DNA from: Candidatus Collierbacteria bacterium GW2011_GWB2_45_17
GTDB lineage: Bacteria; Patescibacteriota; Microgenomatia; UBA1400; MFAQ01
Length of the DNA: 64,000 nt
NCBI GenBank assembly: GCA_001001485.1
Contig: LCKO01000001.1
Span: 9,381 to 73,380 of the forward strand
Direction of reading: 5' to 3'
The notes below the pieces were generated by a model. That model saw only the letters and a program-made list of their open reading frames with translations, was not told the DNA's origin and ran no database searches. Below are positions 8,730 to 63,343 of this stretch, one piece after another. Position numbers and translations under genes: made by a program. The stretch's first letter is position 1. Each line of letters opens with the position of its first letter.

Positions 8730-10865
8730 ATGGCTCGTAAAAAAGGACGCCGTTCTAAACCCTACAAACTAAATCTTAAAAAGGACACCACAAACTCTGT
8801 CTTGGCCGTGATTCTCATGGGGATTGGCGGTCTCATTGCCATCTCATTTTCTCAACAGGGAGATTTGCTTACTAAAATCAACGAAATTGGTCAGCAATTT
8901 TTTGGTTGGCCTCTTCTTTTTCTCCCCTTTATTTTTATCGTCGGGGGTCTCATCATCACTCACGTCAAATTGGCCATTGCCTCCACCCACGTACTTCTTG
9001 GTAGTGTCGTCACCATGGTTTCACTTTCCGGCTTGTTCGGTACCGGTAGTCTGGGTCTCGGGATCAAAGAATCCGTGGTTTCACTTATTTCAGTCCCCGG
9101 GACCATCCTTTTTTATCTCGTAGGTACCGTGATCGGCATTTTTATTCTTTTTGAAACCTCCATCGAAGACCTTTTGGTCCTCGTTCGAAACATCGTCTCC
9201 GGATTGGACGTCGTTACTAGAAAGCTTAGAGGACTTGTCGGTATCAAAGGGAATACTCCTACTTTTTTAAATAAGAGTAACACCGTCAAAATTACCGGGG
9301 GTGATGAACCCGTTACGACTATTTCTCGCCAGACGGTTGAGCCGGTCAAAATTGTCAGCCGTGACCTTGGACATACTACGCAAGCCGTTCTTGAGACCAG
9401 GCGTTTACCGGACGGTGCCTCCGCCGGAGTCTGGCAGTATCCGCCGCTTACCTTGCTAAGTGATCAGAAGCTGGGTAAGGCTGACAGGGGTGACATCAAT
9501 AATAATATCGAAATCATCCAGAACACCTTGGCTTCTTTTGGTATCCAAGCTAAAGTTATGGAGGTTCACCAAGGTCCGGCTGTCTCCCAGTACGCTCTGG
9601 CGATCACCATGGGAACGAAGCTCAGCAAAATCAGTGCTCTTCAGTCCGATTTGGCTTTGGCCCTCTCCGCTCCCCAGGGGCAAATTCGTATCGAAGCCCC
9701 CATCCCTGGTCGCGATTTGGTTGGCATTGAGATTCCCAATCGGTCTCTAGAGTTTGTCTCACTTCGCGAGATGCTTTCCAAAAAAGTCATGCAAGAAAAT
9801 CGTTCCAAAACCGCTTTTTCACTCGGGCTAGATGTTTCCGGTCAAGAAGTTGTCGCCGATCTAGCCAAGATGCCTCACTTGCTCATTGCCGGCACTACCG
9901 GTTCCGGTAAATCTGTCCTAATCAACGCCATCATTTCCTCAATTCTTTTTCGAGCCTCTCCGGAGGAAGTTAAATTCATCATGGTCGACCCCAAACGGGT
10001 GGAACTTACTCCTTACAACGACATCCCCCACCTACTGACTCGAGTGATTACCGACGTTTCTAAAGTCAGTAACGCTCTCGGTTGGTTAGTGGTCGAAATG
10101 GAAAAACGCTACCGCCTTTTTGAAGAGCTGAAAGTCAAAAATATTGCCGGTTACAACGAAACGATCGGTTTTCAGACCATGCCCTTTATCATTGTCATCG
10201 TCGATGAAATGGCCGATATCATGATGTCCAAGAACGCCGGAGAAATTGAGGAAAAAATAGTCCGCCTGGCTCAGATGGCTCGGGCCGTCGGTATCCATCT
10301 GATTCTTTCTACCCAACGTCCCTCTGTCAACATTCTTACCGGTATCATTAAGGCCAATATCCCCGCCCGTATTGCTTTCCAGGTGACCTCCATGATTGAT
10401 TCCCGCGTCATCATCGACACCCCCGGTGCCGAAAAACTCCTTGGCAAAGGAGACATGCTTTACGTTCCGCCGGACATCGCCAAACCAAAACGTATCCAAG
10501 GCGCCTTTGTTTCCGATAAAGAAATTAAGACTCTTCTCGATTTTATTCGCCGCACCGGAGTTACTTCTCAGATGGACGACACCATCATTAAAGCCAAAGA
10601 ATCCCCCGGAACTCTTTCTGCTTCAGGCCAAAACCTAGGCGATGTTGACGACAAATTTGAGGAAGCGGCTCATTTGGTCATCGCTGAAGGTAAGGGTTCC
10701 GCCTCACTCCTTCAAAGACGTCTAGAAATCGGCTATGCCCGCGCCGCCCGCATTCTCGATCAATTGGAAATGGCTGGTGTCCTCGCTCACGCGGAAGGAA
10801 ACAAGCCCAGAGAAATCATTGTTAGTAGTCTGAGTGAAGTTTTTCCCGGTGAAGATAATTCATAA
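8730..10865 (+). CDS. ftsK: DNA translocase FtsK/SpoIIIE
   Basis: N-terminal TM helices, Walker A LLIAGTTGSGKSVLIN, C-terminal gamma domain LLQRRLEIGYARAARILDQLE. Confidence 0.8.
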   Translation: MARKKGRRSKPYKLNLKKDTTNSVLAVILMGIGGLIAISFSQQGDLLTKINEIGQQFFGWPLLFLPFIFIVGGLIITHVKLAIASTHVLLGSVVTMVSLSGLFGTGSLGLGIKESVVSLISVPGTILFYLVGTVIGIFILFETSIEDLLVLVRNIVSGLDVVTRKLRGLVGIKGNTPTFLNKSNTVKITGGDEPVTTISRQTVEPVKIVSRDLGHTTQAVLETRRLPDGASAGVWQYPPLTLLSDQKLGKADRGDINNNIEIIQNTLASFGIQAKVMEVHQGPAVSQYALAITMGTKLSKISALQSDLALALSAPQGQIRIEAPIPGRDLVGIEIPNRSLEFVSLREMLSKKVMQENRSKTAFSLGLDVSGQEVVADLAKMPHLLIAGTTGSGKSVLINAIISSILFRASPEEVKFIMVDPKRVELTPYNDIPHLLTRVITDVSKVSNALGWLVVEMEKRYRLFEELKVKNIAGYNETIGFQTMPFIIVIVDEMADIMMSKNAGEIEEKIVRLAQMARAVGIHLILSTQRPSVNILTGIIKANIPARIAFQVTSMIDSRVIIDTPGAEKLLGKGDMLYVPPDIAKPKRIQGAFVSDKEIKTLLDFIRRTGVTSQMDDTIIKAKESPGTLSASGQNLGDVDDKFEEAAHLVIAEGKGSASLLQRRLEIGYARAARILDQLEMAGVLAHAEGNKPREIIVSSLSEVFPGEDNS

Positions 10866-10867
10866 GT

Positions 10868-11488
10868 ATGAAGACCGTCGGTCAAATCATTTCTCAAGCG
10901 AGACAGAAGAGAGGTTTGTCTATTGACCAACTTTCCGGCCTCACTAAAATAGACTCTAGATACATCTCTGCCCTGGAACAAGATAGATATCAACTGCTTC
11001 CGTCAGAAACCTTTGCCAAGGGCTTTATCAGAAACCTTTGCCAAAGATTGGACTTAAATCCAAACGAATTAATTGCTATCTTCCGTCGGGACTTTCGCCA
11101 TCCGGAACAACCACCCGTCTCAAAACATCGCTCTCGGCTATTTTTGCCCGATAACGCTACCCAGTTTCTTCCTTTTATGGTTGGAGGCGTTGTCTTCCTG
11201 GTTTATCTTATTTTTCAGTTTCGAGCCATCGTTATTCCGCCAAAACTTTCAATTTCTAACCCGGAAAATAATGCCGTTTTAGTGTCTCCGGTAGAGATAG
11301 AGGGAAATACAGCCATCGACGCTACAATCTTCATCAACGAAGATATCAAAATCAAGCCGGACGCTTCCGGACACTTTATCGCTCGCCTTAATTTTCCTCA
11401 AGGCGAAATTGCTATTCAAATAAAAAGTGTCAATCGCTTCTCCCGCTCCGTCACCAAAAACCTTTCGGTCACCATCATCTCCAAATAG
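10868..11488 (+). CDS. RodZ-like cytoskeletal protein (N-terminal HTH, single TM)
   Basis: VGQIISQARQKRGLSIDQLSGLTKIDSRYISALEQDRYQLLP...FAKGFIRNLCQRLDLNPNEL HTH followed by a TM segment. Confidence 0.5.
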   Translation: MKTVGQIISQARQKRGLSIDQLSGLTKIDSRYISALEQDRYQLLPSETFAKGFIRNLCQRLDLNPNELIAIFRRDFRHPEQPPVSKHRSRLFLPDNATQFLPFMVGGVVFLVYLIFQFRAIVIPPKLSISNPENNAVLVSPVEIEGNTAIDATIFINEDIKIKPDASGHFIARLNFPQGEIAIQIKSVNRFSRSVTKNLSVTIISK

Positions 11489-11505
11489 ATCTGATATTAT
11501 TACTT

Positions 11506-11808
11506 ATGACCCTACCTCAAATAATTTCCATGGTTTCTGTAGTTTTACTCACCATCGTCGCCGTCGCAGTTGGAATCCAGCTAATTTACCTCCTCAAAGA
11601 ACTCCGTTACTCACTAGGCCGGATTAATCAGACCATAGACAACGTTTCTAATACTTTTGAGAAAATATCTCAACCGGCTCTCGGACTTTTTGCTATCCTG
11701 GAAGGATTCAAGGAGAGTGGCAAAATTATGGAGACTATCTCTCATCTGCTGGGTAGAGACAAGCCCAAACCTCCGGTAGACATCGACGCTTATGACAACT
11801 CTCTCTGA
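11506..11808 (+). CDS. Small membrane protein, function unknown
   Basis: 100 aa with one TM helix. Confidence 0.4.
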   Translation: MTLPQIISMVSVVLLTIVAVAVGIQLIYLLKELRYSLGRINQTIDNVSNTFEKISQPALGLFAILEGFKESGKIMETISHLLGRDKPKPPVDIDAYDNSL

Positions 11809-12052
11809 TAAACCGAGAGGTGGCCCACTGCCTTTTGCTTTTGGTATTCTCTTTGGCGTCGCCGCCACTTTTCTCTTTGGTACCGATGAGGGTCGCAAGT
11901 TAGTCAAGAAAGTCCTCGATCCATCGTTACCCCCAACTACTCCTCTGATCTTTCCCGAAGAAACCCAGCACCATTCCACTCTTGAATCCCCTCCACCTCC
12001 CTCTCCTTTGGTTCGCCCTGTTCGTCCCGAACCCTTCAAACCCACTCTCTAG
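11792..12052 (+). CDS. Small proline-rich membrane protein (uncertain)
   Basis: 86 aa with a TM helix then a Pro-rich tail; overlaps the previous ORF by 17 nt. Confidence 0.25.
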   Translation: MTTLSDKPRGGPLPFAFGILFGVAATFLFGTDEGRKLVKKVLDPSLPPTTPLIFPEETQHHSTLESPPPPSPLVRPVRPEPFKPTL

Positions 12053-12084
12053 CTGGTCACTCTTAGGCTATAATTTGTCTGAAC

Positions 12085-13917
12085 ATGACCATCAATGAAA
12101 TTCGTCAGAAATATCTGGACTTTATGCAACGGCGGGGGCATGCCTTGACACCTTCCGCTTCCTTGGTTCCCGAAGGCGATGCCACTACCCTTTTTACTTC
12201 AGCCGGCATGCAACCGATGATGCCTTATTTACTTGGAGAAAAACATCCTCTTGGCCCTCGCCTTGTCGACTCTCAAAAATGTTTCCGTTCTCAAGACATT
12301 GAATCGGTTGGAGACAATCGTCATAGTACTTTTTTTGAAATGCTAGGCAACTGGTCTCTCGGTGATTACTTTAAAAAAGAACAACTAAAATATTTTTTCG
12401 AGTTTCTCACCGACCCCAACAAAGGGCTTGGTTTGGATCCTTCCCGACTCTTTGTTACCGCTTTTGAAGGCGACGGTCAAATTAAAAAAGATACCGAAAC
12501 CATTGAAATTTGGCGCGATCTGTTTATCAGAGCCAATCTAAAAAATGTCGATGAGCATATCTTTACTTATCCTGCCAGCAAAAACTGGTGGTCTCGCGCC
12601 AGTGTACCGGAAAAAATGCCTGTGGGGGAGCCAGGCGGTCCGGACTCAGAGGTTTTTTATGACTTCGGTGTGAATCATAGATTTCATGAATCTTCTGCCT
12701 ATAAAAACGGCGAATGTCACCCCAACTGTGATTGCGGCCGCTTTCTGGAGATTGGTAACTCGGTTTTTATGCAGTACCAGAAAAACTCCGATGGCAGTCT
12801 CTCCGAGCTTCCCCAAAAAAATATAGATTTTGGCGGTGGTCTCGTTCGTTTAGCCGCCGCCGTCAACAATGATCCTGACATCTTCCACACTAGTATCTAC
12901 GATCCCATCGTTAAAGAAATCGAAAAATTATCCGGTAAGTCCTATGAAGACGAAGAAAACCAGCCTCCCATGCGGATCATCGCCGATCATCTCACCGCCG
13001 CCACCTTTCTCATCAAAGACGGTATTTTCCCCAGTAACAAAGCTCAGGGGTACGTTCTCCGCCGCCTTCTTCGTCGCGCGGCTGTTAAGCTTCACTTCTT
13101 AATGGGTGGTCGTGAAGGTATTATTCAGCTCGCCGGTATCACTTCGTCGATTATAGAAATTTACAAAAGCATTTACTTTGTCAAAGACGATTCGCTCTAT
13201 GTTCAAGGCGCTATTGCCAATGAGATTAGCCGGTTTGAAAAATCATTGGACAAAGGGATTAAAGAATTGGAAAAGAAAACCGATGTTTCCGGTAAAGACG
13301 CCTTTGACCTTTATCAAAACTACGGTTTTCCTCTGGAGATTACGACCGAGATTTTGGCTCAAATCGGTAAGTCGATAGACACGGAACAATTTCAGAAGGA
13401 ATTTGAAAAACACCAAGAACTCAGCCGAACCGCTTCAATGGGCATGTTCAAAGGCGGTCTGTCCGACCACTCCGCCATCGTGACCGCTTATCACACCGCC
13501 ACCCACTTGCTTCATTCTGCCTTAAGAATAATTTTGGGCACTCATGTAAGTCAAAAAGGCAGCAACATTACCGCCGAGCGTCTCCGATTCGATTTTTTTC
13601 AGCCTGAAAAAATATCCGACGATCAAATAAAATCTATTGAAGATTTAATCAATCAAAAAATATCGGAAAAATTACCAGTTACTCGGGCAGAAATGCCCAA
13701 AGAAAAAGCGATCGCCGAAGGCGCCATGGCTTTTTTTGGTCAAAAATATCCCGACATAGTGAGCGTATTCACCATTGGTGAAGAGCCGAACCATTTTTCC
13801 AAAGAGCTATGTGGAGGTCCGCATGTGGCAAGTCTGGCAGAACTTGCTAAGATAAAGGTAGTCAAACAAGAGTCTTTGGGCGCCGACACCCGACGTCTCT
13901 ATTTACAGTTTGTTTGA
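12085..13917 (+). CDS. alaS: Alanyl-tRNA synthetase, short form lacking the C-Ala domain
   Basis: Class II catalytic core, editing-domain HTATHLLHSALR and CGGPHV zinc motif; 610 aa. Confidence 0.8.
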   Translation: MTINEIRQKYLDFMQRRGHALTPSASLVPEGDATTLFTSAGMQPMMPYLLGEKHPLGPRLVDSQKCFRSQDIESVGDNRHSTFFEMLGNWSLGDYFKKEQLKYFFEFLTDPNKGLGLDPSRLFVTAFEGDGQIKKDTETIEIWRDLFIRANLKNVDEHIFTYPASKNWWSRASVPEKMPVGEPGGPDSEVFYDFGVNHRFHESSAYKNGECHPNCDCGRFLEIGNSVFMQYQKNSDGSLSELPQKNIDFGGGLVRLAAAVNNDPDIFHTSIYDPIVKEIEKLSGKSYEDEENQPPMRIIADHLTAATFLIKDGIFPSNKAQGYVLRRLLRRAAVKLHFLMGGREGIIQLAGITSSIIEIYKSIYFVKDDSLYVQGAIANEISRFEKSLDKGIKELEKKTDVSGKDAFDLYQNYGFPLEITTEILAQIGKSIDTEQFQKEFEKHQELSRTASMGMFKGGLSDHSAIVTAYHTATHLLHSALRIILGTHVSQKGSNITAERLRFDFFQPEKISDDQIKSIEDLINQKISEKLPVTRAEMPKEKAIAEGAMAFFGQKYPDIVSVFTIGEEPNHFSKELCGGPHVASLAELAKIKVVKQESLGADTRRLYLQFV

Positions 13918-27300: not shown

Positions 27301-28016
27301 TCGACGTTACCCAGGGTCTGCCTAGAGTTACCGAACTTTTTGAAGTCCGTATGCCCAAACTGGTTGCTCCTCTAGCCGAAGTCTCGGGCAAGGCCAAAAT
27401 TGTCGAAACCGACAACGGCAACCTAATTACTATTACCCCTACCGGCAAAAAAGAAGATCGCAAAGAGTATCTCATTCCTTTAGCCATGCATCTTAAGGTC
27501 GAAGATGGTGATCTTGTAGCCGTTGGAACTCAACTGGCCTCAGGAGGGGTGGACATTAGAGAACTTTTGAAGATCAAGGGTTTGAGAGCCGCTCAAAACT
27601 ACCTTATTGCCGAGATTCAATCAATTTATGAATCTCAAGGTATCAGCATTCACGACAAACACTTTGAAGTCATCACTAGAAAAATGTGCGACTATGTTCG
27701 AATTGACTCCGTTGGAGACTCAAGCCTCGTCGCCGGAGACGTTATCAGTCGAGGCAGTTACGAAATGGCCAATGAAGGCGTTATCGCTCAAGGAGGAGAG
27801 CCTGCCACCGCCACCAATCTTATTCTTGGTACCATTCGCGCCGCTCTACACACCGACAGTTGGCTTTCAGCCGCCTCTTTCCAAGACACCACCAGTGTCT
27901 TAACCGACGCCGCGGTTCAGGGAAAAGTTGACCATCTCGTGGGTATGAAGGAAAACGTTATTATTGGCCGCTTGGTTCCCACCAGCAAACTCCGTGCCAG
28001 GATCGAGAATATCTGA
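24306..28016 (+). CDS. rpoC: DNA-directed RNA polymerase beta' subunit
   Basis: NADFDGDQM catalytic motif, zinc-binding Cys clusters, 1236 aa. Confidence 0.9.
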
Positions 28017-28035
28017 TAAAATACACGAGCAAACA

Positions 28036-28458
28036 ATGCCTACCACGAATCAATTAATCAAGTCCGGCCGGGTGAGTAACGCCCGAAAAATAAAAACCAC
28101 CGCTCTTCGTAAGAGTTTTAACTCGGTCAAGCGTCGAATGGTTGTCACCCAAAGTCCTCAAAAGGCTGGGGTCTGTTTACAGGTCAAGACCATGACTCCC
28201 AAAAAACCAAACTCCGCATTACGGAAGATTGCCCGAGTGAGACTGTCAAACAAACAAGAAGTGACCGCTTACATCATGGGTGAAGGTCACAACTTAGCCG
28301 AGCACAGTATCGTCCTGATTCGCGGTGGTCGAGTTCGAGATCTTCCTGGTGTGAAGTTTCATATTATTAGAGGTAAGCTCGATACCGGTGGCATTGAAAA
28401 ACGCCGCACCTCCCGCAGTAAATACGGCACCAAACGCCCCTCAGTAGCAAAGAAATAA
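28036..28458 (+). CDS. rpsL: 30S ribosomal protein S12
   Basis: [12 protein letters not shown]...[10 protein letters not shown]. Confidence 0.9.
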
Positions 28459-28460
28459 AT

Positions 28461-28937
28461 ATGCGATCCAAAAAAACCCCACCTAAAAAAGTCCAATTTG
28501 ATCCGATTTACGGTAGTCCCTTAGTGGCCAAGTTAATCGCCTGTGTTATGGAAGACGGTCGAAAATCTGTCGCCGCCAAACAAGTTTACAAGGCTATTGA
28601 CATTGTCGCCGAGCAAACCAAGCAAGATGGAGTCGAGTATCTTCACACATCTCTGGACAACATCAAGCCGACTATCGAAGTCCGCTCCCGTCGTGTTGGA
28701 GGCGCTTCCTATCAAGTACCTACTCCTATCCGTCCGGAACGTCGTGACTCTCTGGCCATCCGCTGGCTCATCAATGCCGCCAAAGCTAGAGGCGCCAATC
28801 CTTACCGTACCCTTGCCGACAAACTCGCCGCCGAAATCGTGGAATCTCACGAAAATGCCGGCGCCGCCATCAAAAAGAAGCTCGACACTCACAAGCAAGC
28901 TGAGGCGAATAAGGCATTCGCTCACTTTAGATGGTAA
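28461..28937 (+). CDS. rpsG: 30S ribosomal protein S7
   Basis: S7 signature; 158 aa. Confidence 0.9.
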   Translation: MRSKKTPPKKVQFDPIYGSPLVAKLIACVMEDGRKSVAAKQVYKAIDIVAEQTKQDGVEYLHTSLDNIKPTIEVRSRRVGGASYQVPTPIRPERRDSLAIRWLINAAKARGANPYRTLADKLAAEIVESHENAGAAIKKKLDTHKQAEANKAFAHFRW

Positions 28938-29022
28938 TCCTATAGCATTATTACAGGACTACAATTTTTCATATTTGTGTTTCGGTATTGATTAGTTTTA
29001 ACTTTGGGTTTATTATGGATAT

Positions 29023-29871
29023 GTGATCACAAATTACTGCCCGATTTGTGGAGAATTGGTATTTAAAAAGCGAAAATTTTGTTCGGTTAAATGTAAGTCT
29101 GAAAGTCAAAATCAAAAGATTGAGTTAGAATGCACTGGTTGCGGTAACCATTTCAGGATATTGCCATATTTACAAAGGAAATCTAATTACTGCTCCGTCT
29201 CTTGCTATCACGACTCCACTAGGAAAAAAGAAATTAAAAATTGTCCGGTTTGCAGGAAGAATTTTTCAGTTATGGCGTGTTTAGTAAAGAAAGGTTTTGG
29301 AATTTATTGTTCTCAGAAATGTCGTTATAAAATTCACAGGAAGACTCAAGTTTGTTATCGATGCGGAAAGGAGTTTACTAGGGCATTATCATTATCTATT
29401 AAATATACAAAGTCATTTTGCAGTAAAAAGTGTTGCGACGACTCAACAAGGGAATATGTTTCGATATCGTGCCGCAATTGTCAGAAAATGATCTCAATTC
29501 CAAGAAGCACAATTAATCGAGGTAAGGGAGGATTCTGCTCCTGGTACTGTTATATCCACTATAAAGGCGAAACATCAATCGAAAAGATTGTGAGAATCCG
29601 ACTAAAAAAGGCCAAAATACCATTTGAACAAGAAGTTAAAATCGGTAAATACCATTCAGATTTTATGATCCAAAACACCAACATTCTGATTGAATGTGAT
29701 GGTGATTACTGGCACGGATTACCTTCAGCAATTGCCAAAGATAAGGTTCGAGATTTGATATTACGGACAAAAGGGTATGAAGTGCTTCGATTTACCGAGA
29801 CCGAGATAAAAAAGACAAAAGGAAACTGTGTTATTAATCAATTATCACAAAGGACAGACGTTAAGCAATGA
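29023..29871 (+). CDS. Zinc-ribbon-repeat protein with a C-terminal DUF559 (Vsr-like / restriction-endonuclease-fold) nuclease domain
   Basis: Five repeats of CxxC...x10-15...(F/Y)CSxxC, then IVRIRLKKAKIPFEQEV...SDFMIQNTNILIECDGDYWHG...DKVRDLILRTKGYEVLRFTETEI (DUF559 pattern). Confidence 0.55.
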   Translation: MITNYCPICGELVFKKRKFCSVKCKSESQNQKIELECTGCGNHFRILPYLQRKSNYCSVSCYHDSTRKKEIKNCPVCRKNFSVMACLVKKGFGIYCSQKCRYKIHRKTQVCYRCGKEFTRALSLSIKYTKSFCSKKCCDDSTREYVSISCRNCQKMISIPRSTINRGKGGFCSWYCYIHYKGETSIEKIVRIRLKKAKIPFEQEVKIGKYHSDFMIQNTNILIECDGDYWHGLPSAIAKDKVRDLILRTKGYEVLRFTETEIKKTKGNCVINQLSQRTDVKQ

Positions 29872-30811
29872 ATTCCCTCTCCAAAAAATACTGGGTCAAA
29901 CAAAAGCGGTATTCACTTTCCCGTTTAAATGGTTTCACCATTTTCTTTTGTTTCTGAGTCAGTTTTTCAAAATCTTTTTCGGTCAAGTGGGCCAGTATCA
30001 GGACATCACTTCGTCTCAGTTCTATACCCGTCTCTTTCTTTATTTGCTCTAGTATCTCTATCTGTACCGGCGCGTATTTTTGATAAACATAATCGGCGGT
30101 GAAAGTACTAAATACTTTATCGGCGATAATTAAGGACAAAATATTCTTAAACCACTTGGTGCCATAAAGAGTCTTTACCGGCTCCCGGGTGAAGGTAAAT
30201 CCAACTCGATAGTAAAACAATCCAAAAGGTTTGCTCATCGAGGTTAATACCGCCACGATATTTGGATGGGTATAGTCGAATTTATGTCTCTTGGTCAAAC
30301 CTAAATATGCCAAATCCACAATTACTTTATGTCCCAGATCCGCAATTTGATTAATTAAAGTGTCCACCAAAATATTTCCATCTCTACCGGATGGATTTGA
30401 GATAAACCAATACCCCGGTTTCAATTTCATTATCGTTTCGAAATCCTCCGGTATTTCTTGTACTTTTAGGCCAAGGCCTACGGCGCATTCCCGATAACCC
30501 TCATACTCTCCCTCCAGAGTATAAATTGGTGACTCCGGATGGTCTTTTTTGATTCTCGAAAGCAGGTGATATATTCCCTCACTCGAGCCACCGGTGGGGT
30601 AGCGGTATTCAAAGCTTTCCAAACCCTGAACGTCTTTTTTATAGAAATTAATCATCTTCTCAATGATTGGTTTCTCGTAGTCATCGAGTCCCGGCTTAAT
30701 CGATTTCAAAAATTCTCCATGTGGGAACTCTGCTGTAATCTCCGAAATCAGTTTCCTAATTTCCGGAAAGTAGTAAGAATAAACGGCTCGAATCGCTTTT
30801 AATTTCTTCAT
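29861..30811 (-). CDS. Class I/II PLP-dependent aminotransferase-fold enzyme (HisC/CobD-like, short)
   Basis: ISNPSGRDGNILV (NPxNPTG-like) and SMSKPFGLFYYRVGF (PLP-lysine motif). The probable start is the internal Met giving a 4-nt ATGA overlap with the upstream radical SAM gene; the ORF track extends to 30838. Confidence 0.55.
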   Translation of the reverse strand: MKKLKAIRAVYSYYFPEIRKLISEITAEFPHGEFLKSIKPGLDDYEKPIIEKMINFYKKDVQGLESFEYRYPTGGSSEGIYHLLSRIKKDHPESPIYTLEGEYEGYRECAVGLGLKVQEIPEDFETIMKLKPGYWFISNPSGRDGNILVDTLINQIADLGHKVIVDLAYLGLTKRHKFDYTHPNIVAVLTSMSKPFGLFYYRVGFTFTREPVKTLYGTKWFKNILSLIIADKVFSTFTADYVYQKYAPVQIEILEQIKKETGIELRRSDVLILAHLTEKDFEKLTQKQKKMVKPFKRESEYRFCLTQYFLEREFIA

Positions 30812-31683
30812 AGAATAATTGCCCCTTTGTATTGCCAATCAAATCGAATGTGTCCGTCGGGGAAGAAGATCATCTGTCGAATGTCATCCGTTCCGGGTTT
30901 TATCGTTAGAGCATCTGTCAAACAAACATTTTGTCCGGCGACATCATAGATTCTTGAGTTGTGTTCGTAAGAAAGAAGTAATCTCCCTTCCTTTTCCAGC
31001 CAGTCATTTATGTCCGCAATTTTCTTAGGAGTTAGCATCATCTTCACCGTATCTGTTTTATATTTCTCACTTTCCGAATTTTCCGGCGCAGCCACCGGTC
31101 TCAGAGACACTTGCTCCACTCCCCACTTGTTAGCCATCTCCACCATTTTTTTGGCCTCTTTGGGAGTGTCGATATGATCTTTGATCAGGACTACCGAAAA
31201 TCTTACGGAGTAGCCAATTTTATGCAGTTTGGCGATTATCTTTCCCAAATCCGGATATATTTTTTTACCGGGCACATAATTGGCTCTATTTTTCTCCGGA
31301 TCATAGTGCACCACCGATATCGAGATAATGGACAATCCAAGTTCAAACCACTCTTTTAAATATTTCTCATAACTTTTTTCTTGTTCGGAAAACAAAATAG
31401 CATTTGTCTGTAGTTCCAGAATAGGGAAGTCATATTTCTGAAGGTGTTTCAAATATTCGGTCAGCTGATCGGGGTATAAAGTCGGCTCACCCTTGCCGGT
31501 AAGCAGTACTGTCGTAATGTTATTTATCTGGGCAATCCTACAAGCTTTGTGAAAGTTGTGCCAGTTTATCAAGGTGGGTTTGGTGCCAATTCCCCTTATT
31601 CCCGTCATTTTCGAAACACAAAAGGGACAACTGGCATTACAAATGGCATTCCCCGACACTACCGTAAAAGTCTGTATCTTCAT
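30808..31683 (-). CDS. Radical SAM enzyme
   Basis: CNASCPFC (CxxxCxxC) near the N-terminus, TVLLTGKGEPTLYP glycine-rich SAM motif; 291 aa, no SPASM extension. Confidence 0.65.
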   Translation of the reverse strand: MKIQTFTVVSGNAICNASCPFCVSKMTGIRGIGTKPTLINWHNFHKACRIAQINNITTVLLTGKGEPTLYPDQLTEYLKHLQKYDFPILELQTNAILFSEQEKSYEKYLKEWFELGLSIISISVVHYDPEKNRANYVPGKKIYPDLGKIIAKLHKIGYSVRFSVVLIKDHIDTPKEAKKMVEMANKWGVEQVSLRPVAAPENSESEKYKTDTVKMMLTPKKIADINDWLEKEGRLLLSYEHNSRIYDVAGQNVCLTDALTIKPGTDDIRQMIFFPDGHIRFDWQYKGAIIL

Positions 31684-31801
31684 CTTAGTGTATATATTAC
31701 ACTAATAAAGAAGAATTGTCAAATATATCCAATTTAGCCACTATATACCTAGTGGAGTATAATCACCTTAGTACATTTCCAAACTCTTACGGAGGTAAAT
31801 C

Positions 31802-32233
31802 ATGTTTGAATGGTTATTTGGTTATAAAATTGATCCTCAAACCACGGTTGAGTGTTGGTTCCTTGAGTCCTATTCCATTACAGAAGAAAGTGCCAAGGGA
31901 AATCGTACTTTGGCCTACACCACCACTTGGAAAGAATACCAGTACAAGAGCCTTATCCATCCGAAGAACAAATTCGGTCCGAAAGATACCTTAGTGGTCA
32001 TAGGTCTTAACGTCAATCTAACCTCAGATTATAATTTTTTCACAAAGGAAGATTTCGAAAACCGAGCCAAGAATGTGCCAATCAGGAACGAAGAGGAGAG
32101 AGCTGCCTGGATCGATCGCATGCTTGAAACTCTTCCTTCAAAAAAAGAAAGTTTGGACAAATTAATTACGAAAATTGAGTCTTTGCGGGAAGGACTTTCC
32201 ACACTCGTCGATGAGCTACATTCACTTTCCTAG
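31802..32233 (+). CDS. Hypothetical protein with a canonical SD (GGAGG)
   Basis: 143 aa; SD 7 nt upstream of the ATG; its leader is duplicated upstream of the MttB gene. Confidence 0.4.
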   Translation: MFEWLFGYKIDPQTTVECWFLESYSITEESAKGNRTLAYTTTWKEYQYKSLIHPKNKFGPKDTLVVIGLNVNLTSDYNFFTKEDFENRAKNVPIRNEEERAAWIDRMLETLPSKKESLDKLITKIESLREGLSTLVDELHSLS

Positions 32234-32243
32234 AAGATAATTT

Positions 32244-32272
32244 AAAACCCCGATCAATTTTCGGGGTTTTTT
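32244..32272 (+). terminator. Intrinsic terminator AAAACCCCGATCAATTTTCGGGGTTTTTT
   Basis: GC stem then T-tract directly after the 32233 stop. Confidence 0.6.
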
Positions 32273-32338
32273 GTGCCTAATCATAAAGCGTATAATCACG
32301 CCAGTACATTTCCAATTTATTCTTCCAAAGGAGGCTCT

Positions 32339-33796
32339 ATGAAGCCAAAACTGACCTTGCTCGATGATGAATTGATTGCACGCGTCACTGACGAAGCTTT
32401 TCAATTATTGATGAGTCCGGGAATCAAAGTCCAAAATGTCGAAGCCCGTGAGCTACTTCGCTCCGCCGGAGCCGAAGTCGACGAGACCACTCTGGTTGCC
32501 CGGATTCCGAAATCTCTGGTCTTCACATCCCTCAAAACCGTGCCTCGTCATTTTCATCTTTATGATTATCAAGGCAACCAAAAAGTTCACTACGGCGGCG
32601 ACTCGGTTCACTTCGATCCAGGCTCCTCAGGCACCAATATTTTAGACACGGTGACTTTAGAGCATCGGCCAGCGCAAACTCAAGATCTTCTTCGGGTTAT
32701 CAAAGTGGTCGAAGGTCTTTCCGAGTACGACGCTCAGTCCACGGCTATTGTTTGTAGCGATGTGCCGAAAGAGATCCAAGATCTCTATCGCTTATATCTG
32801 GTTTTACTTTTCTCCGGGAAACCCATCGTCACCGGAGCCTTCTCCAATGAGAACGTCGAGCACATGATCGATATACTGGCCATCATTCCCGGTAGCCGCG
32901 AAAATCTGCGGCGTTTCCCCCGTGCCATATTCGATGTTTGCCCGTCGCCTCCACTCATTTGGTCCAATTTTGGCTCAGGCAATCTTATTGCTCTGGCGCG
33001 TGCCGGCGTTCCGGCCGAAATGGTTTCTATGCCCCTTGCTGGTGTGGCCGCCCCCGTGACCCTCATTGGCTCCGTCACTCAGCACGCGGCCGAGTGCCTC
33101 AGTGGGATCGTCATTCACCAATTAGCCGAAGCCGGCTCTCCCATTGTTTGGGGAGGTGCTCCGGCCATCTTCGACATGCGCAAAGGTGGCACTCCCATGG
33201 GTGCGATCGAGACCGCTATGATCGATAGCTCATATACCCAAGTCGGTAAATCCTTGGGACTTCCCACCCACGCCTATTTAGGCGGTTCCGATTCTAAGTT
33301 GGTCGACGGTCAAGCCGGCTTCGAAAGTGGCATGTCCATTCTTGTGGGCGCCCTCAGCGGTATCAATATGATCTCCGGTGCAGGTATGATCGACTCGCTT
33401 CTTTGTATGAGTCCGGAAAAACTGGTTATCGATGCCGAGTGCATTGCCATGGCTCGTCGAATGCTGAGGGGAATCGACACTCCGACCGAGACTCTAGCCT
33501 CAGGCTTTTATGAAGGTATAGACTTCAAAGGAAACTTTCTCAAGCAGAGAATTACCTCTGACCTATTCCGAAAGGAACAGCATCTCCCCAGCTCGGTAGT
33601 AGATCGGGATTCAGTTCGCGGCTGGAAAGCTTCAGGCAGTCTGGATACTTTTGCCCGAGCCAAGCTCGAGGTTGATAGACTTGTTGCCTCTTATCATCGT
33701 CCACAGCTAGACCCTTCTCAGGAAAAAGCCATTCGCGATCTTGTTGCCTCCTTCGCCCGCGAGGCCGGTATGCCCGCTCTCCCCCCTCTAGACTAA
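32339..33796 (+). CDS. MttB-superfamily (trimethylamine / glycine-betaine:corrinoid) methyltransferase, non-Pyl form
   Basis: Collinear similarity to MttB: AECLSGIVIHQL, GGAPAIFDMRKGGTPMG, LVIDAECIAMARRMLRGIDTPTETLA. The gene is visibly more GC-rich than its neighbours. SD AAAGGAGG upstream of the Met at 32339; the ORF-track ORF starts at 32273. Confidence 0.75.
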   Translation: MKPKLTLLDDELIARVTDEAFQLLMSPGIKVQNVEARELLRSAGAEVDETTLVARIPKSLVFTSLKTVPRHFHLYDYQGNQKVHYGGDSVHFDPGSSGTNILDTVTLEHRPAQTQDLLRVIKVVEGLSEYDAQSTAIVCSDVPKEIQDLYRLYLVLLFSGKPIVTGAFSNENVEHMIDILAIIPGSRENLRRFPRAIFDVCPSPPLIWSNFGSGNLIALARAGVPAEMVSMPLAGVAAPVTLIGSVTQHAAECLSGIVIHQLAEAGSPIVWGGAPAIFDMRKGGTPMGAIETAMIDSSYTQVGKSLGLPTHAYLGGSDSKLVDGQAGFESGMSILVGALSGINMISGAGMIDSLLCMSPEKLVIDAECIAMARRMLRGIDTPTETLASGFYEGIDFKGNFLKQRITSDLFRKEQHLPSSVVDRDSVRGWKASGSLDTFARAKLEVDRLVASYHRPQLDPSQEKAIRDLVASFAREAGMPALPPLD

Positions 33797-33839
33797 ATAC
33801 TTGCTAAACTACAAACAAATACCTTAAAAAAGGAGAAAA

Positions 33840-34328
33840 ATGTCTAAGTACTACGACATTGTAGTTATCAAAAGTTTCTCTATGGTTGCAGATGAATCGA
33901 CGGATGAAATTTTCAGAATGAACTTCGCTAAAGATGTCAGATCAAAACGCCTCGTTATAACTCATGCTCATCAATTAATAATTTTTAGCGTAGAGGCTAA
34001 AAGAATTGATCTCAATGCTGTCAAACGATTTGAAAATTTCCTCAGATCAAACGGTTTCACCAAGCTTTTTTCGGCAGTATACTCAGATAAAATGTCTGAT
34101 CTAGACGCCCGCTTCTTTACGATCAGATTGCATTCCAAGAATTTTTCCGATATGAAAGATCTGCTAATTTCCAAAATCGAAAAAGCCATCGGTGGAAAAC
34201 TCAAGGTTTACCACGACGAAATATACTATTTTCATTTGACCAAGTCCCAAATAAAGTCCAGACGTTTGGTTAGGCTAATAGACGATCTAGTCTTCTCTCC
34301 CGCAATCGAAATAGTCATCTGTATCTAA
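33840..34328 (+). CDS. Hypothetical protein (SD AGGAG upstream)
   Basis: 162 aa ORF with an SD. Confidence 0.4.
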   Translation: MSKYYDIVVIKSFSMVADESTDEIFRMNFAKDVRSKRLVITHAHQLIIFSVEAKRIDLNAVKRFENFLRSNGFTKLFSAVYSDKMSDLDARFFTIRLHSKNFSDMKDLLISKIEKAIGGKLKVYHDEIYYFHLTKSQIKSRRLVRLIDDLVFSPAIEIVICI

Positions 34329-34354
34329 CACTCCTCACAAGGGGGTGTTTTTTT
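34328..34354 (+). terminator. Intrinsic terminator ACACTCCTCACAAGGGGGTGTTTTTTT
   Basis: 7-bp stem with one G-U pair, plus T-tract. Confidence 0.45.
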
Positions 34355-34497
34355 GGCACAATAAAGTCTAGCTATTTGCCAGACTCCTTCTTGAAAAACT
34401 TCTTCACTCTCTGGTGGGCGCCTTTTGGGGCACGTTCGTAGGGGCGGGGTTTCCCCGTCCAACAACAACCCCAAAGAAAATTTGCTAACATAAATTC

Positions 34498-34827
34498 ATG
34501 TCCTCTGTCGATTTTTACCTCGACCATCGCAACAATAGTCCTGTCAGTGACTTTTTAGACAAAAACAAAGAGGTCAAAGTCAAAGCTTTAATTATCATCA
34601 AAAACATCATCGAGTTTGGCCTTTCCACCGCCATTCCCCACATCAAGAAACTCTCGGGTCTTCCTCTCTGGGAAATTCGTATCTTAGGCAAAAGCAACGC
34701 TCGCATTCTTTATGTCCACAAGGTTAAGAATCAAATAATTCTCCTCCACGCTTTCAAAAAGAAAACTAACAAAACTCCCACCAAAGAAACAAACATCGCT
34801 CTCAATCGCCTCAAAGATATCACTTGA
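34498..34827 (+). CDS. HigB-like toxin (Gp49-like/DUF891), second copy
   Basis: LWEIRILGKSNARILYVHKVKNQIILLHAFKKKTNKTPTKE. Confidence 0.65.
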   Translation: MSSVDFYLDHRNNSPVSDFLDKNKEVKVKALIIIKNIIEFGLSTAIPHIKKLSGLPLWEIRILGKSNARILYVHKVKNQIILLHAFKKKTNKTPTKETNIALNRLKDIT

Positions 34828-34860
34828 CATCTATATCCTATACGATATACAATTAGAACC

Positions 34861-35139
34861 ATGAACCTCCTCTCTTTTGACCAATATTTATCTGATAGCC
34901 TCAAAGATCCAGCATTCAAGAAACTCTGGGAAAAAGCCGACCCTGAATACCAGCTCTCCAGGCAAATAATCAAGGCCAGACTAGAGGCAAAAATGTCTCA
35001 AAAAGACCTCGCCAAAAAGGCTCACACCACTCAAGCCATCATTTCTCGTCTCGAAAACTCCAGCTTCAACCCCTCCCTCTCATTTCTCAAAAAAATCGCC
35101 ATTGCTCTCAACACCCCTCTCCATATCTCTCTTCCCTAA
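34861..35139 (+). CDS. HTH XRE-family antitoxin (HigA-like), second copy
   Basis: MSQKDLAKKAHTTQAIISRLE HTH; paralog of 5777-6067. Confidence 0.65.
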   Translation: MNLLSFDQYLSDSLKDPAFKKLWEKADPEYQLSRQIIKARLEAKMSQKDLAKKAHTTQAIISRLENSSFNPSLSFLKKIAIALNTPLHISLP

Positions 35140-35155
35140 CCTGTAAATCTCTCCC

Positions 35156-35180
35156 GCTCACCTCATTGGTGGGCTTTTTG
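35156..35180 (+). terminator. Terminator-like hairpin GCTCACCTCATTGGTGGGCTTTTT
   Basis: 7-bp stem plus T-tract between the antitoxin and fusA. Confidence 0.35.
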
Positions 35181-35196
35181 TGGTAAAATTAGCCTC

Positions 35197-37317
35197 GTGA
35201 ATATTGTCGGAAAAAAAGTTCCCCTTGATCGTGTTAGAAATACGGGTATTATCGCGCACATCGATGCCGGCAAGACCACCACTACCGAACGTATTCTTTT
35301 TTATACCGGTAAGTCATATAAAATTGGCGATATCGATGATGGTAATACCCAGATGGACTGGATGGACCAAGAAAAAGAGCGGGGTATAACGATCGTCTCC
35401 GCGGCCACCACCGCTTTTTGGACCCCTGTTTTGCCCCATGCCCGCTTCAAAGAAGAGCATCGCTTCAACATCATTGATACTCCGGGCCACGTCGATTTTA
35501 CGGCTGAGGTCGAGCGTTCTCTTCGTGTTCTCGATGGAGGCGTTATTGTTCTGGATGCCGGCTCCGGTGTCCAGTCTCAAACCGAAACCGTTTGGCGTCA
35601 AGCCGACAAATACCACGTTCCTCGCATTGCTTTTATCAACAAAATGGACGTTCTGGGAGCCGATTACATGGCTACCATCAAGGATGTGCATGAGAAACTC
35701 GGTGCCAAAACGGCCGTCATGGCTCTGCCTCTAGGTGTCGAAAACACTTTCCGCGGTATTGTTCTCCTTCTCGAGAGGGAAACTATTGTCTGGAAAGGCG
35801 ACGAAACCGGTGCTCTGTACGAAGTTACCGAAGGCTTCCCTGAGGAGATGAAAGACGAGTGTGAGCTCGAACGTGCCAAATTGATCGAATCCATTGTCGA
35901 ATTTGATGAAGTCCTCATGGGCGAGTATCTTGATGGTCAAGAACCGAGCCTGGACGCCCTCAAGACCGCTCTCCGGACAGCCACCTGTGCCAATCAGATC
36001 GTTCCTGTCTTTCCCGGTTCGTCCCTTCGCAACAAAGGCGTCCAGCCTCTTCTTGACGCCGTGGTTGATTTTTTACCTTCCCCACTAGACAAGCCCACCA
36101 TTACCGGTACCAATCCCGAAACCAACGAAGAGGAAACTCGTCTAGCCGACCCTGCCGAACCTTTCTCAGCCCTAGCTTTCAAGATTCAGGCCGATCCTCA
36201 TGTTGGTAAGCTGACTTATCTTAGAATATACTCCGGCAAAATTACCTCAGGTTCATTTGTTTATAATGCCTCCAAGCGCGAGCGCGAGAGACTTGGTCGT
36301 TTGATGCTCATGCACGCCAACACTCGTGAAGAAGTTAGCGAAGCCGGTGCCGGAGAAATTGTCGGCGTCGTCGGTCTCAAAGCCACCAAAACCGGCGACA
36401 CTCTTTGCGACGAATACAAGCCCTTGGTTCTGGAATCCATCAATTTTCCTGATCCGGTCATTTCTCTAGCCATTGAGCCCAAAACCAAAGCCGATCAAGA
36501 AAAGCTGGATGTGGCTCTGAGTCGTCTAGCCGAGGAAGATCCCACTTTCCGCATCAAAACCGATCACGAAACCGGCCAAACCGTTATCTCCGGCATGGGT
36601 GAACTTCATCTGGAAATATTGGTTGACCGTCTTCGCCGTGAGTTTAAGGTCGAGGCCTCTACCGGTGCTCCTCAAGTGGCTTACCGCGAAACTATCACCA
36701 AACCAGCTCGAGGAGAAGGTAAGTACATCCGCCAATCAGGTGGTCGAGGCCAATATGGTCACTGTATTCTCGTCATTACTCCCAAAACCAGAGGAGAGGG
36801 TTTTACTTTTACCAACAAGATCGTTGGCGGCACCATTCCCAAGGAATTTATCTCCCCAATCGAAAAAGGTGTTCGTGAAGCTCTCGACAACGGTGTTATT
36901 TCCGGTTTCCCTTTGGTTGATCTTGACGTCGCTGTTATAGACGGTTCCTTTCATGAGGTGGACTCTTCCGAAATGTCTTTCAAGATTGCCGGTTCCATGG
37001 CTCTTCAGGACGCCGTCAAAGCCGCCGGGCCGGTCATCCTCGAACCGATTATGAAGGTAGAAGTTACCACTCCCGAAGGTAACATGGGTGACATTATCGG
37101 GGACCTTTCCTCTCGCCGGGCCCAAATCGCCGGTTCCGCCCAACGGGGCAACGCTCGAGTTATCACCGCCACCGTGCCTCTTTCGGAGCTTTCCGCCTAC
37201 GCCACCGCCATTCGTTCTTTAACCGCCGGCCGAGCCAACTACTACATGGAACCCAGTCATTATCAGGAGCTTCCAAACAGTTTGGCGGCCAAGTTATTGA
37301 AAAACCCGACAAACTAG
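35197..37317 (+). CDS. fusA: Elongation factor G
   Basis: GTG start; [10 protein letters not shown]-domain motifs; 706 aa. Confidence 0.9.
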
Positions 37318-62279: not shown

Positions 62280-62350
62280 ATTAAAATAAATCCAAACAAT
62301 ATAGATAGAACTAGACGTACGGATAAAAATTGATATATCAACCTATATTG

Positions 62351-62422
62351 TCGGGGCACCCGGAATTGAACCGAGATCATGTCGACCCCATCGACACATA
62401 CTAGCCGTTATACTATGCCCCG
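62351..62422 (-). tRNA. tRNA-Pro (anticodon GGG)
   Basis: Manual fold of the reverse complement: acceptor CGGGGCA/TGCCCCG with discriminator A (C1-G72 and A73 are typical of bacterial tRNA-Pro); D-loop AACGGCTA; anticodon stem TGTCG/CGACA with loop ATGGGGT (U33, anticodon GGG, G37); T-arm CTCGG-TTCAATT-CCGGG; no encoded CCA. Confidence 0.7.
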
Positions 62423-62479: not shown

Positions 62480-63343
62480 ATGTATGAGATCGAAGTAATC
62501 TGTGACCACTGTAAAAAAGAATTTGAGAGACCATTAGGGAGATTCAACGAAGCCGTGAAGTTTGGCTGGAAACAATTTTGTTCGGCAGAATGCCAATCAA
62601 AATCAAAGTCTAAAAAGATATCAAAAATCTGTGATAATCCAGTGTGCCATAAATCAATATTGGCTAAGAAAACAACCAGCTATACATACTGTTCGAGAAA
62701 TTGTAGCGCAACTCACAACAATTTATTGAGGTTAAAACCATTTGTTTTGGAAAAGTGTGCCAATAAAAACTGTAACAATTTTCTCAGAAATCACGAATGT
62801 AAGTATTGTTCTAGAGATTGTGTCAATAAGTCCAAAAAAGGTCTGTCTTCGTATTCAAAAGAAAAACTAATACAAATTATTCAAAAGTTTCAACTAGATA
62901 ATGGAAGAATTCCTACCAAAGCAGAACTAGGATATCTCAATAGACCTGCAAGAAACATTTTTGGTTCTTGGAACAAAGCTGTTAAAGCTGCCGGCTTCAT
63001 ACCCAACAAAGTCATTTTTTCTAAAAAGTTTACAGCCAACGATGGTCATATCTGTGATTCTTTGTCAGAAAAAATCGTCGACGATTGGTTATCCGCTAGA
63101 AGCATAAAGCATGAAGTTCACATTAGGTATCCCTGGAAAAACGGTATGTCCGCAGACTTCAAGATTGGTAAATATTGGGTAGAGTTATTTGGTCTTACAG
63201 GTCAACTTAAAAAGTACGATAGCTTAATGAGAACAAAGTTAGAATTAATCAAACAATATAATCTCAAGCTAATCAGTTTGTACTTATCAGACATTTTTCC
63301 CGTTAACCATCTTGATAAAAAATTATCCCTATTGCGAAAATAA
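62480..63343 (+). CDS. Zinc-ribbon-repeat protein with a homing-endonuclease-associated-repeat-like segment and a C-terminal DUF559-like nuclease domain; paralog of 29023-29871
   Basis: Three CxxC...(F/Y)CSxxC repeats as in 29023-29871; GRIPTKAELGYLNRPARNIFGSWNKAVKAAGF; the C-terminal ADFKIGKYWVELFGL...QYNLKLISLYLSDI aligns with the DUF559 block of the paralog. Confidence 0.5.
   Translation: MYEIEVICDHCKKEFERPLGRFNEAVKFGWKQFCSAECQSKSKSKKISKICDNPVCHKSILAKKTTSYTYCSRNCSATHNNLLRLKPFVLEKCANKNCNNFLRNHECKYCSRDCVNKSKKGLSSYSKEKLIQIIQKFQLDNGRIPTKAELGYLNRPARNIFGSWNKAVKAAGFIPNKVIFSKKFTANDGHICDSLSEKIVDDWLSARSIKHEVHIRYPWKNGMSADFKIGKYWVELFGLTGQLKKYDSLMRTKLELIKQYNLKLISLYLSDIFPVNHLDKKLSLLRK

Follow-up and report, generated by a model that had tools for sequence, protein, structure and literature searches.

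A finger-nuclease gene lies between rpsG and fusA

We analyzed a 64,000-nucleotide stretch of contig LCKO01000001.1 from Candidatus Collierbacteria bacterium GW2011_GWB2_45_17 (hereafter the window), in which rpsG, encoding ribosomal protein S7, and fusA, encoding elongation factor G (EF-G), are separated by ~6.2 kb. These two genes of the str operon are normally adjacent. The gene studied here starts 85 bp past the rpsG stop codon (28937) and encodes a protein with an N-terminal array of cysteine fingers and a C-terminal nuclease domain (Table 1). An initial annotation of the window had described a gene with five CxxC...FCSxxC repeats directly after rpsG, and the 282-aa open reading frame (ORF) with its five units and short spacer bore this description out. 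The protein was 100% identical to a public entry, 'Protein containing DUF559', from Candidatus Collierbacteria bacterium GW2011_GWA2_44_99 of the candidate phyla radiation (CPR)/Microgenomates.

The finger array consists of five CxxC-x(10-19)-[FY]CSxxC units. A six-frame scan of the 64-kb window found this pattern in the nuclease gene and once in a second gene at 62480-63343, and nowhere else. When 21 full-length members of the family were aligned (A1), all finger cysteines but one proved invariant (19 of 20) and the remaining one was at least 90% conserved, indicating that the repeats did not arise by chance. The finger region (aa 1-181) had a net charge of +27, with 37 Lys and Arg residues against 10 Asp and Glu residues. 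In the AlphaFold2 model (mean predicted local distance difference test score, pLDDT, 88) each of the five units formed a beta-hairpin plus a helix, and an alpha/beta domain followed. The units had initially been called zinc-ribbon repeats; five Cys4 fingers are indeed present, but in sequence and model they look like FCS/MYM/TRASH-like treble-clef fingers rather than classical ribbons. The matches to named finger families all fell below the Pfam cut-offs (DUF2116, PF09889, 'probable treble clef', E 0.02-0.055; zf-FCS, PF06467, and zf-FLZ, E above 9), and the MYM finger 2das was matched by the A1 profile at E 0.079 only. The finger region also matched two phage 'HNH endonuclease' families, phrog_1271 (2.4e-12) and phrog_559 (7.9e-9), which suggests that in phages the same finger module is joined to different nuclease domains.

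The nuclease domain carries a complete EDxHD active site

Two Pfam models matched aa 187-270 above their cut-offs, REase_MTES_1575 (PF18741; 6.1e-12, 45.9 bits, cut-off 38.2) and DUF559 (PF04480; 1.8e-11, 44.3 bits, cut-off 20.6). When the A1 profile was compared with the PDB sequences, the best match was 3r3p (3r3p_A), the catalytic domain of the homing endonuclease I-Bth0305I (E 5.6e-9), and the second best was the DUF559 protein NGO0050 (3hrl; 8.7e-7). Foldseek likewise placed 3r3p first among PDB structures (TM score 0.77, root-mean-square deviation 2.9 A), followed by Vsr-like mitoribosomal proteins of Toxoplasma and Tetrahymena, 3hrl and Vsr. The HMMER alignment paired residues E170, D196, H213 and D222 of I-Bth0305I (numbering after PMC3239194) with E187, D213, H231 and D240 of the window protein; the extra acidic residue E206 corresponded to E224, and N208 to D226. 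Invariant positions in the nuclease part of A1 were E183, E187, Q203, E204, D213, F214, E224, C225, D226, G227, Y229, W230, D240 and E259, and H231 was conserved in at least 90% of the members. This mapping, together with the conservation, indicates that the EDxHD active site is complete and conserved. The proposal of a Vsr-like DUF559 domain was therefore confirmed by the profile search, with the catalytic residues in place and a homing endonuclease as the nearest relative.

The sole PADLOC match of the protein was a 'homing endonuclease' model (1.1e-4), and PADLOC assigned it to no defence system. There was no Pfam Vsr (PF03852) match in the window protein, and the Vsr structures 1vsr and 1cw0 were reached at E ~0.2 only. 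Judging from sequence and model, the nuclease domain is related to the Vsr mismatch endonuclease at the level of the fold only.

Orthologs are locked to the 3' side of rpsG

Five homologs with 43-69% identity all lay directly 3' of rpsG on the same strand, with different downstream neighbours each time. More loci came from scanning metagenomes with A1 and then locating marker proteins by tblastn, and every full-length homolog of at least ~40% identity with upstream DNA followed rpsG, at 22 further distinct loci (L091 had the same sequence as L001 and was not taken as a separate locus). A single sample, 3300014208, contained four or more carrier populations (L007, L091, L094 and L103). No homolog at or below 35% identity adjoined rpsG. 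The initial annotation had pointed to a nuclease beside a highly conserved gene, and the orthologs proved to be fixed at this one site, not scattered at random. The gap from rpsG to the gene was -1 to 104 bp at the 18 loci measured, including the window. The DNA between the nuclease gene and fusA differed in every genome and ranged from 0.13 to more than 5.6 kb: in L097, L099 and L101 the gene was the sole insert, with fusA ~0.13-0.16 kb downstream, and the other loci had 0.5 to >5.6 kb of unrelated genes before fusA.

The orthologous spacers contained TTGACx-17-TAtaAT-like sites and a recurrent TTCGG motif, and in L001 a hairpin followed by a T-run could be read directly past rpsG. By eye, the inserts of L097 and L099 consisted of a TTGACT-17-TATAGAT site, the ORF, a GC-rich hairpin with a T-run, and a TGCGATAAT element just upstream of the fusA ATG. 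A promoter consensus scan of the window returned 1 weak site against 4 expected, no better than chance, so that the case for a promoter comes from the orthologous spacers, read by eye. Judging by these signals, transcription of the gene appears to be independent of the operon. The TGCGATAAT element stood after the terminator-like hairpin and a few bases before the fusA ATG (L097, 6828-6990; L099, 6840-6967). This layout suggests that in L097 and L099, where the cassette split the operon, fusA has acquired a promoter of its own, perhaps giving a very short leader.

We also considered a foreign origin on the basis of low GC content, since the gene had 29-40% GC, 6-12 points under the locus mean, at all six loci checked. 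However, the low GC recurs in each of the lineages, and the protein has a high content of Lys, Cys, Ile and Asn; the low GC is hence not evidence of recent transfer. An insertion borne by a transposon, an integrase or an intron was equally unsupported. No flanking repeats, terminal repeats or terminal inverted repeats were found around the nuclease gene, and there was no sign of a transposase. No intron was detected either, the only Rfam match in 27500-36000 being a sub-threshold PYLIS element inside mttB.

Carriers and non-carriers are interleaved, and homology breaks at the 3' end of the gene

Non-carriers were identified by scanning genome contigs with the window S7 and then by tblastn. The S7 scan returned mostly unrelated phyla, and the informative in-clade genomes were L011, L012, L014 and L021 only; all four were without the nuclease gene. 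L011, Collierbacteria RIFOXYD2_FULL_45_13, is the closest relative of the window genome (S7 93% and EF-G ~93% identical). Its rpsG-fusA gap (10478-13062) held three other ORFs, and the sole cargo in common was a 155-aa ORF with 32% identity to a 143-aa ORF of the window. In L012 the gap (10478-12798) was occupied by a 687-aa ORF that is helicase-like from motifs read by eye. L014, with ~150 bp between rpsG and fusA, and L021, with 12 bp from the rpsG stop to the fusA ATG, were clean empty sites. On an EF-G neighbour-joining tree, carriers (+) and non-carriers (-) were interleaved: the window (W) grouped as (L011-, W+), L012-, L001+, and other mixed groups were (L014-, L094+) and (L021-, L105+, L103+, L099+, L097+). 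Nealsonbacteria and non-CPR bacteria fell outside these groups and were without the gene.

Between the window and L011, DNA homology ended exactly at the rpsG stop codon and resumed ~20 bp before fusA (35178/35208). Between the window and L001, which carries the gene, homology ran through the nuclease gene to 29834 and was then lost until fusA; L103 and L104 showed the same pattern. Three close pairs had DNA homology from rpsG through the nuclease gene that ended at the 3' end of the gene. This pattern indicates that the gene is inherited with the left (rpsG) block and that a hypervariable segment starts at its 3' end. The island boundary proposed in the initial annotation is therefore supported, with variable DNA beginning where the nuclease gene stops.

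Distant relatives occupy phage homing contexts

Proteins combining fingers and DUF559 at 28-36% identity were found in phage contigs. One of them, P0026 (L008), was encoded in the opposite orientation to the capsid and portal genes that flank it; another, with about seven fingers (L116), lay among apparent phage structural genes, its neighbours not being identified by Pfam; and a third (L121) adjoined a terminase gene with an intein. In L117 (2079-6125) Pfam placed the finger+DUF559 gene between an ORF ending in an N-terminal Hint domain and an ORF starting with a C-terminal intein-splicing part, a layout that corresponds to the 'fractured gene' arrangement described for the EDxHD nuclease family (PMC3384342). 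The split intein of L117 sits in a portal/Mu-F protein and an ADP-ribosyltransferase ORF comes after it. In L111 (5247-8090) the finger and nuclease region was located by Pfam within the intein of a Mu-F-like protein, and in L161 two fingers were combined with NUMOD3 motifs and DUF559. The number of FCS-type fingers among the relatives read ranged from 2 to 6-7. The viral-contig scan returned 198 relatives, none above 37% identity. An exhaustive profile search, counted as cluster representatives at 50% identity, gave 517 at E<=1e-30, 6,738 at E<=1e-10 and 32,454 at E<=1e-3, and by these counts the finger+DUF559 architecture is common.

A second finger gene beside recA belongs to a separate family

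The second gene, p2 (62480-63343), had been taken for a paralog at an equivalent island boundary. Its neighbours are indeed tRNA-Pro (62350-62422, minus strand) on one side and recA (start 63368) on the other, but it represents a separate family without the catalytic His, and we saw no sign that it marks an island boundary. Its fingers comprise one CxxC and two Cx4C types. HNH_repeat ('homing endonuclease associated repeat'; 6.3e-12) was the sole Pfam match in p2, with DUF559 undetected, and its PADLOC matches were PDC-S69 and a PD-(D/E)xK model. BLASTP of p2 against the five-finger protein found similarity in the fingers only (E 0.003), and hhalign aligned the two families through the fingers and into the first part of the nuclease domain (98% probability, E 1.9e-13). 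The best fold match of the p2 model (pLDDT 82) was also 3r3p (TM score 0.73, E 9.5e-3). In the p2 family E197, D226 and E235 (p2 numbering) were invariant, the catalytic His was absent, and the counterpart of D226 of the five-finger protein was apparently not conserved, as read from alignment A2.

The p2 family gave 272 hits at E<=1e-3 across Collier-, Davies-, Nealson- and Spechtbacteria and Parcubacteria-group genomes. Of the six distinct contexts read, four had it beside recA, directly upstream in the window, L173 (5001-5825) and L174 (4001-4885) and divergently adjacent in L176 (4001-4849). In the other two it closely preceded the str operon and was encoded on the strand opposite to it (L171/L172, 5001-5858; L175, 4001-4870). 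On the evidence of sequence and models, p2 is a distant homolog with its own history, a member of a much larger, CPR-wide family that usually adjoins recA, and not a close paralog. I-Bth0305I, the nearest solved relative, targets recA (PMC3239194). Two genes upstream of tRNA-Pro and p2 lies a gene for a BRO-N domain protein (60511-61329), which hints at another inserted segment near p2. BRO-N domain proteins are common in phages.

Cargo genes of the rpsG-fusA gap

The remainder of the gap in the window is filled with the genes listed in Table 1. The aminotransferase-like ORF runs convergently into the end of the nuclease gene, overlapping its last 11 bp, and it shares a 31-bp overlap with the radical-SAM (S-adenosylmethionine) gene. 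The radical-SAM protein weakly resembled MoaA and the prokaryotic viperins (PADLOC pVip 5.8e-8), with scores under the curated cut-offs. The MttB-family gene looks foreign, its GC content rising to 58% against ~45% around it, and an Rfam PYLIS_3 match (pyrrolysine insertion element) at 33284-33383 within mttB scored 29.2 bits, below the gathering score of 38. A 26-nt direct repeat, 88% identical (31757-31782 and 32290-32315), flanks the 143-aa ORF. Just upstream of fusA, the 109-aa ORF and the gene for a helix-turn-helix (HTH) protein look like a toxin-antitoxin pair; toxin-antitoxin genes also occurred in the rpsG-fusA gap or nearby in L001, L003 and L004.

Table 1. Coordinates of the finger-nuclease gene, its flanks, the cargo genes and p2 in the window
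Feature	Positions	Strand	Evidence or remark
rpsG (ribosomal protein S7)	28461..28937	+	Pfam Ribosomal_S7 6.9e-53; conserved left flank
Spacer rpsG-nuclease gene, 85 bp	28938..29022	+	promoter-like site TTGATT-17-TATTAT at 28988-29016
Five-finger + DUF559/EDxHD-type nuclease gene, 282 aa, GTG start	29023..29871	+	
Five-finger array CxxC...[FY]CSxxC, aa 6-176	29038..29550	+	pattern scan, Cys conservation, AlphaFold2 model
Finger unit, aa 6-24	29038-29094	+	
Finger unit, aa 37-61	29131-29205	+	
Finger unit, aa 74-100	29242-29322	+	
Finger unit, aa 111-137	29353-29433	+	
Finger unit, aa 150-176	29470-29550	+	
Vsr-like/EDxHD nuclease domain, aa 182-270	29566..29832	+	Pfam, PDB profile, Foldseek; putative active site E187, D213, E224, D226, H231, D240
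Variable cargo, nuclease gene to fusA	29861..35196	.	no DNA homology to L011, L012, L001
Cargo: aminotransferase-like gene	29861-30838	-	
Cargo: radical-SAM gene	30808-31683	-	
Cargo: 143-aa ORF	31802-32233		
Cargo: MttB-family (trimethylamine methyltransferase-like) gene	32273-33796		GC up to 58%
Cargo: 162-aa ORF			in rpsG-fusA gap
Cargo: 109-aa ORF	34498-34827		
Cargo: 92-aa XRE-type HTH protein	34861-35139		
fusA (EF-G)	35197..37317	+	Pfam; conserved right flank
p2, distant relative: three fingers, HNH_repeat, divergent Vsr-like domain	62480..63343	+	24 bp upstream of recA, beside tRNA-Pro

Homing versus long-term residence

The best-supported reading of these results is a long-resident, free-standing homing-type nuclease cassette in a Microgenomates clade, marking the left boundary of a recombination-prone cargo region. 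We regard it as an even call whether the protein is a site-specific endonuclease of the EDxHD homing type whose free-standing rpsG-fusA cassette goes through a homing cycle. In such a cycle the five basic FCS/treble-clef fingers would read a long DNA site. The cassette, made up of a promoter-like site, the ORF and in some genomes a terminator-like hairpin, sits in the str operon at the rpsG-fusA junction, which is otherwise tight, and the enzyme would cut cassette-free or variant alleles of that junction. The break would be repaired by recombination through the highly conserved rpsG and fusA flanks, and the repair would copy the cassette, plus whatever adjoins its 3' side, into the cut genome. 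The expected outcome would be a gene kept at one site, a patchy distribution and a 3' side that acts as a hotspot for cargo swaps. The mostly vertical inheritance of the gene and the strong purifying selection on its protein make it a long-term, possibly partly domesticated resident. We infer DNA cleavage, a target site, homing and a causal role in the variable region, and homing would be the most economical mechanism for position-locking combined with patchiness.

The patchy distribution, the clean empty sites, the autonomous-looking cassette and several discordant pairs all point against a purely vertical residence. L105 differed from L097, L099 and L103 by an EF-G distance of 0.19-0.22 and by a gene distance of 0.59-0.61; the S7 distance between L103 and L104 was 0.06 and their gene distance 0.22; and L007 and L106 were closer in the nuclease gene than in host proteins, all on pairwise distances that saturate at deeper levels. 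The homing-endonuclease-like behaviour that the initial annotation had proposed is matched by the EDxHD domain, the fixed site and the phage homing contexts of the relatives, but not by the mostly vertical pattern of the gene.

A number of observations weigh against a homing cycle, and most of them favor a somewhat unlikely but serious alternative in which the gene encodes a domesticated host nuclease. Such a protein would be a former homing endonuclease, now vertically inherited and serving, for example, in DNA repair or recombination, that stays after rpsG by inertia and is occasionally lost. Across the 18 loci, the p-distances of the gene tracked those of S7 (r 0.73, Mantel p ~2e-4), of the last 680 aa of RpoC (r 0.71) and of EF-G (r 0.67; Mantel p<=4e-4 for both), and the nearest-neighbour pairs of the gene were the same as those of the host proteins; plain vertical inheritance predicts exactly this tracking. 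With a mean protein distance of 0.54 against 0.44 for S7, the nuclease evolves only slightly faster than the ribosomal protein. In four close pairs the ratio of nonsynonymous to synonymous substitutions (dN/dS) was 0.07-0.12, comparable to 0.03-0.15 for S7, although these values are rough as dS was near saturation (0.9-2.7). Intact copies made up 22 of the 23 distinct ones. The only broken copy seen was that of L092 (1035-1829), in which an in-frame stop separates finger 5 from the nuclease domain (..FCSRKCF*DYNGETSIE..), possibly a pseudogene or a sequencing error, and with this one broken copy a selfish cycle of invasion, decay and loss is not evident. The viral-contig and metagenome scans found no viral or non-rpsG copy of the rpsG-linked orthogroup, and the retention of the p2 family beside recA across CPR indicates that proteins of this kind can be stable residents. 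Co-divergence, dN/dS and the scarcity of decayed copies together point to a long, mostly vertical residence over frequent horizontal homing.

Further points against homing concern the junction itself. The rpsG-fusA gap was also filled with cargo in L011 and L012, which lack the gene, and since the cargo differs even in Collierbacteria without the nuclease, the gap is a general hotspot. The idea that such nucleases may seed islands, put forward in the initial annotation, is accordingly a conjecture. The last 48 nt of rpsG showed no target-site or immunity signature when 17 carriers were compared with 4 non-carriers, the promoter evidence consists of consensus matches only, and the literature searched held no study characterizing the finger+DUF559 architecture, nor any biochemistry of it. 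On the other hand, a domesticated host nuclease fits poorly with at least four in-clade genomes that lack the gene, the closest relative among them, and with two clean empty junctions. It also fits poorly with the promoter-like and terminator-like signals of the gene, with its splitting of an otherwise tight operon, with the discordant pairs L105 vs L097/L099/L103 and L103 vs L104, and with nearest relatives that are mobile nucleases. The data fit an ancient gene that was lost repeatedly as well as they fit a site-specific re-invasion between related genomes. Overall, the initial interpretation was partly supported.

Two other functions were weighed. A restriction-type defence nuclease, whose fingers would recognize foreign DNA such as that of phages and whose gene would anchor a small defence island in the rpsG-fusA gap, would agree with the restriction-endonuclease fold of DUF559/MTES_1575 and with a cargo that includes a toxin-like ORF with its HTH partner and a weakly viperin-like radical-SAM gene, as well as with the toxin genes of other loci. 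We nevertheless consider it quite improbable, given that PADLOC returned the homing model and no defence system, that the gene has no conserved methylase or immunity partner beside it (its neighbours vary by genome and there are none in L097 and L099), and that defence genes are not normally fixed to one site over such divergence. An RNA- or ribosome-associated role is the least probable of all, being very hard to reconcile with a conserved and complete DNA-nuclease EDxHD active site, a DNA homing endonuclease as the best match in both sequence and fold, apparent transcription of the gene apart from the operon, and its dispensability in close relatives. Such a role would have the Vsr-like (RAP/FASTK-like) domain and the FCS fingers bind or cut RNA, which would explain the place of the gene in the str operon. 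FCS fingers can bind RNA, and the fixed location between translation genes and the Foldseek matches to the mitoribosomal Vsr-like proteins of Toxoplasma and Tetrahymena would suit it. FASTKD4 is presented as a Vsr-like regulator of a mitochondrial mRNA in the title of PMC11879112. Of the readings considered, the long-resident homing-type cassette remains the one we prefer.

Comparison with known systems

The prototype of the EDxHD (Vsr-like) homing endonucleases is I-Bth0305I (PDB 3R3P; PMC3239194), and the family was first described by Dassa et al. 2009, as cited in PMC3384342. The window protein shares with I-Bth0305I the catalytic fold, the E-D-x-H-D residues with the extra acidic residue, and a bipartite build in which the nuclease follows an N-terminal DNA-binding region. 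Members of the EDxHD family are free-standing, or found in inteins and in 'fractured' genes, and so are the distant finger+DUF559 relatives. The two proteins differ in that I-Bth0305I binds DNA via NUMOD/HTH motifs in place of five FCS-type zinc fingers, and its gene lies within a phage recA as part of a group I intron, whereas the window gene is intergenic, between rpsG and fusA of a bacterial chromosome. Target cleavage has been demonstrated for I-Bth0305I; the window protein is known from its sequence and model, and it has a long co-divergence with its host.

With DUF559/REase_MTES_1575 proteins such as NGO0050 (PDB 3HRL) the protein shares matches to both Pfam models above the cut-offs, but NGO0050 is a 104-residue chain without fingers. 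Typical DUF559 proteins are short single-domain proteins or carry other N-terminal domains, and we know of no DUF559 protein described with a fixed genomic position or a finger array. The Vsr very-short-patch repair endonuclease (PDB 1VSR, 1CW0) has a distantly related fold with metal-binding Asp and His; its sequence similarity is marginal, its architecture is different, and nothing in the window protein points to recognition of T:G mismatches. Like the free-standing homing endonucleases of T-even phages (Seg/Mob, 'intronless homing'), the gene forms an intergenic cassette between conserved genes. The Seg/Mob-type enzymes are GIY-YIG or HNH nucleases of phage genomes with a very sporadic distribution, whereas the window enzyme is of the EDxHD type, resides on a cellular chromosome and is stably co-inherited with its left flank. 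Phage nuclease genes at boundaries of genetic exchange (PMC10055350) resemble it in that similarity between relatives breaks down beside the nuclease gene. The tandem finger array fused to a separate cleavage domain also brings to mind engineered zinc-finger nucleases, from which the window protein differs by its Cys4 FCS/treble-clef units of ~37 aa each. The engineered proteins combine C2H2 fingers with a FokI domain.

Significance

Two points are already known: public annotation includes the DUF559 call, and published work has linked DUF559 to the EDxHD homing endonucleases. Apparently new, in the literature searched, is the widespread tandem Cys4 FCS-type array as the presumed DNA-binding module of this nuclease family. 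The same holds for an orthogroup locked between rpsG and fusA across deeply diverged CPR, and for the coincidence of the gene with the left edge of a hypervariable cargo region. The insertion splits one of the most conserved operons of bacteria, yet the selection on the gene is as strong as on a ribosomal protein. More speculatively, and in our view unlikely, the finger+EDxHD proteins might be natural modular zinc-finger nucleases that read a few base pairs per finger, and the rpsG-linked member might repeatedly break the junction and so create a hotspot of accessory-gene exchange in the genome-reduced CPR, with the most conserved genes as homology arms. Should cleavage of empty junctions be shown, the gene would stand as a long-lived case of intron-less homing on a chromosome. 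It would then also offer a route by which CPR bacteria exchange accessory genes, and the array of fingers would be a candidate for a new programmable DNA-recognition scaffold.

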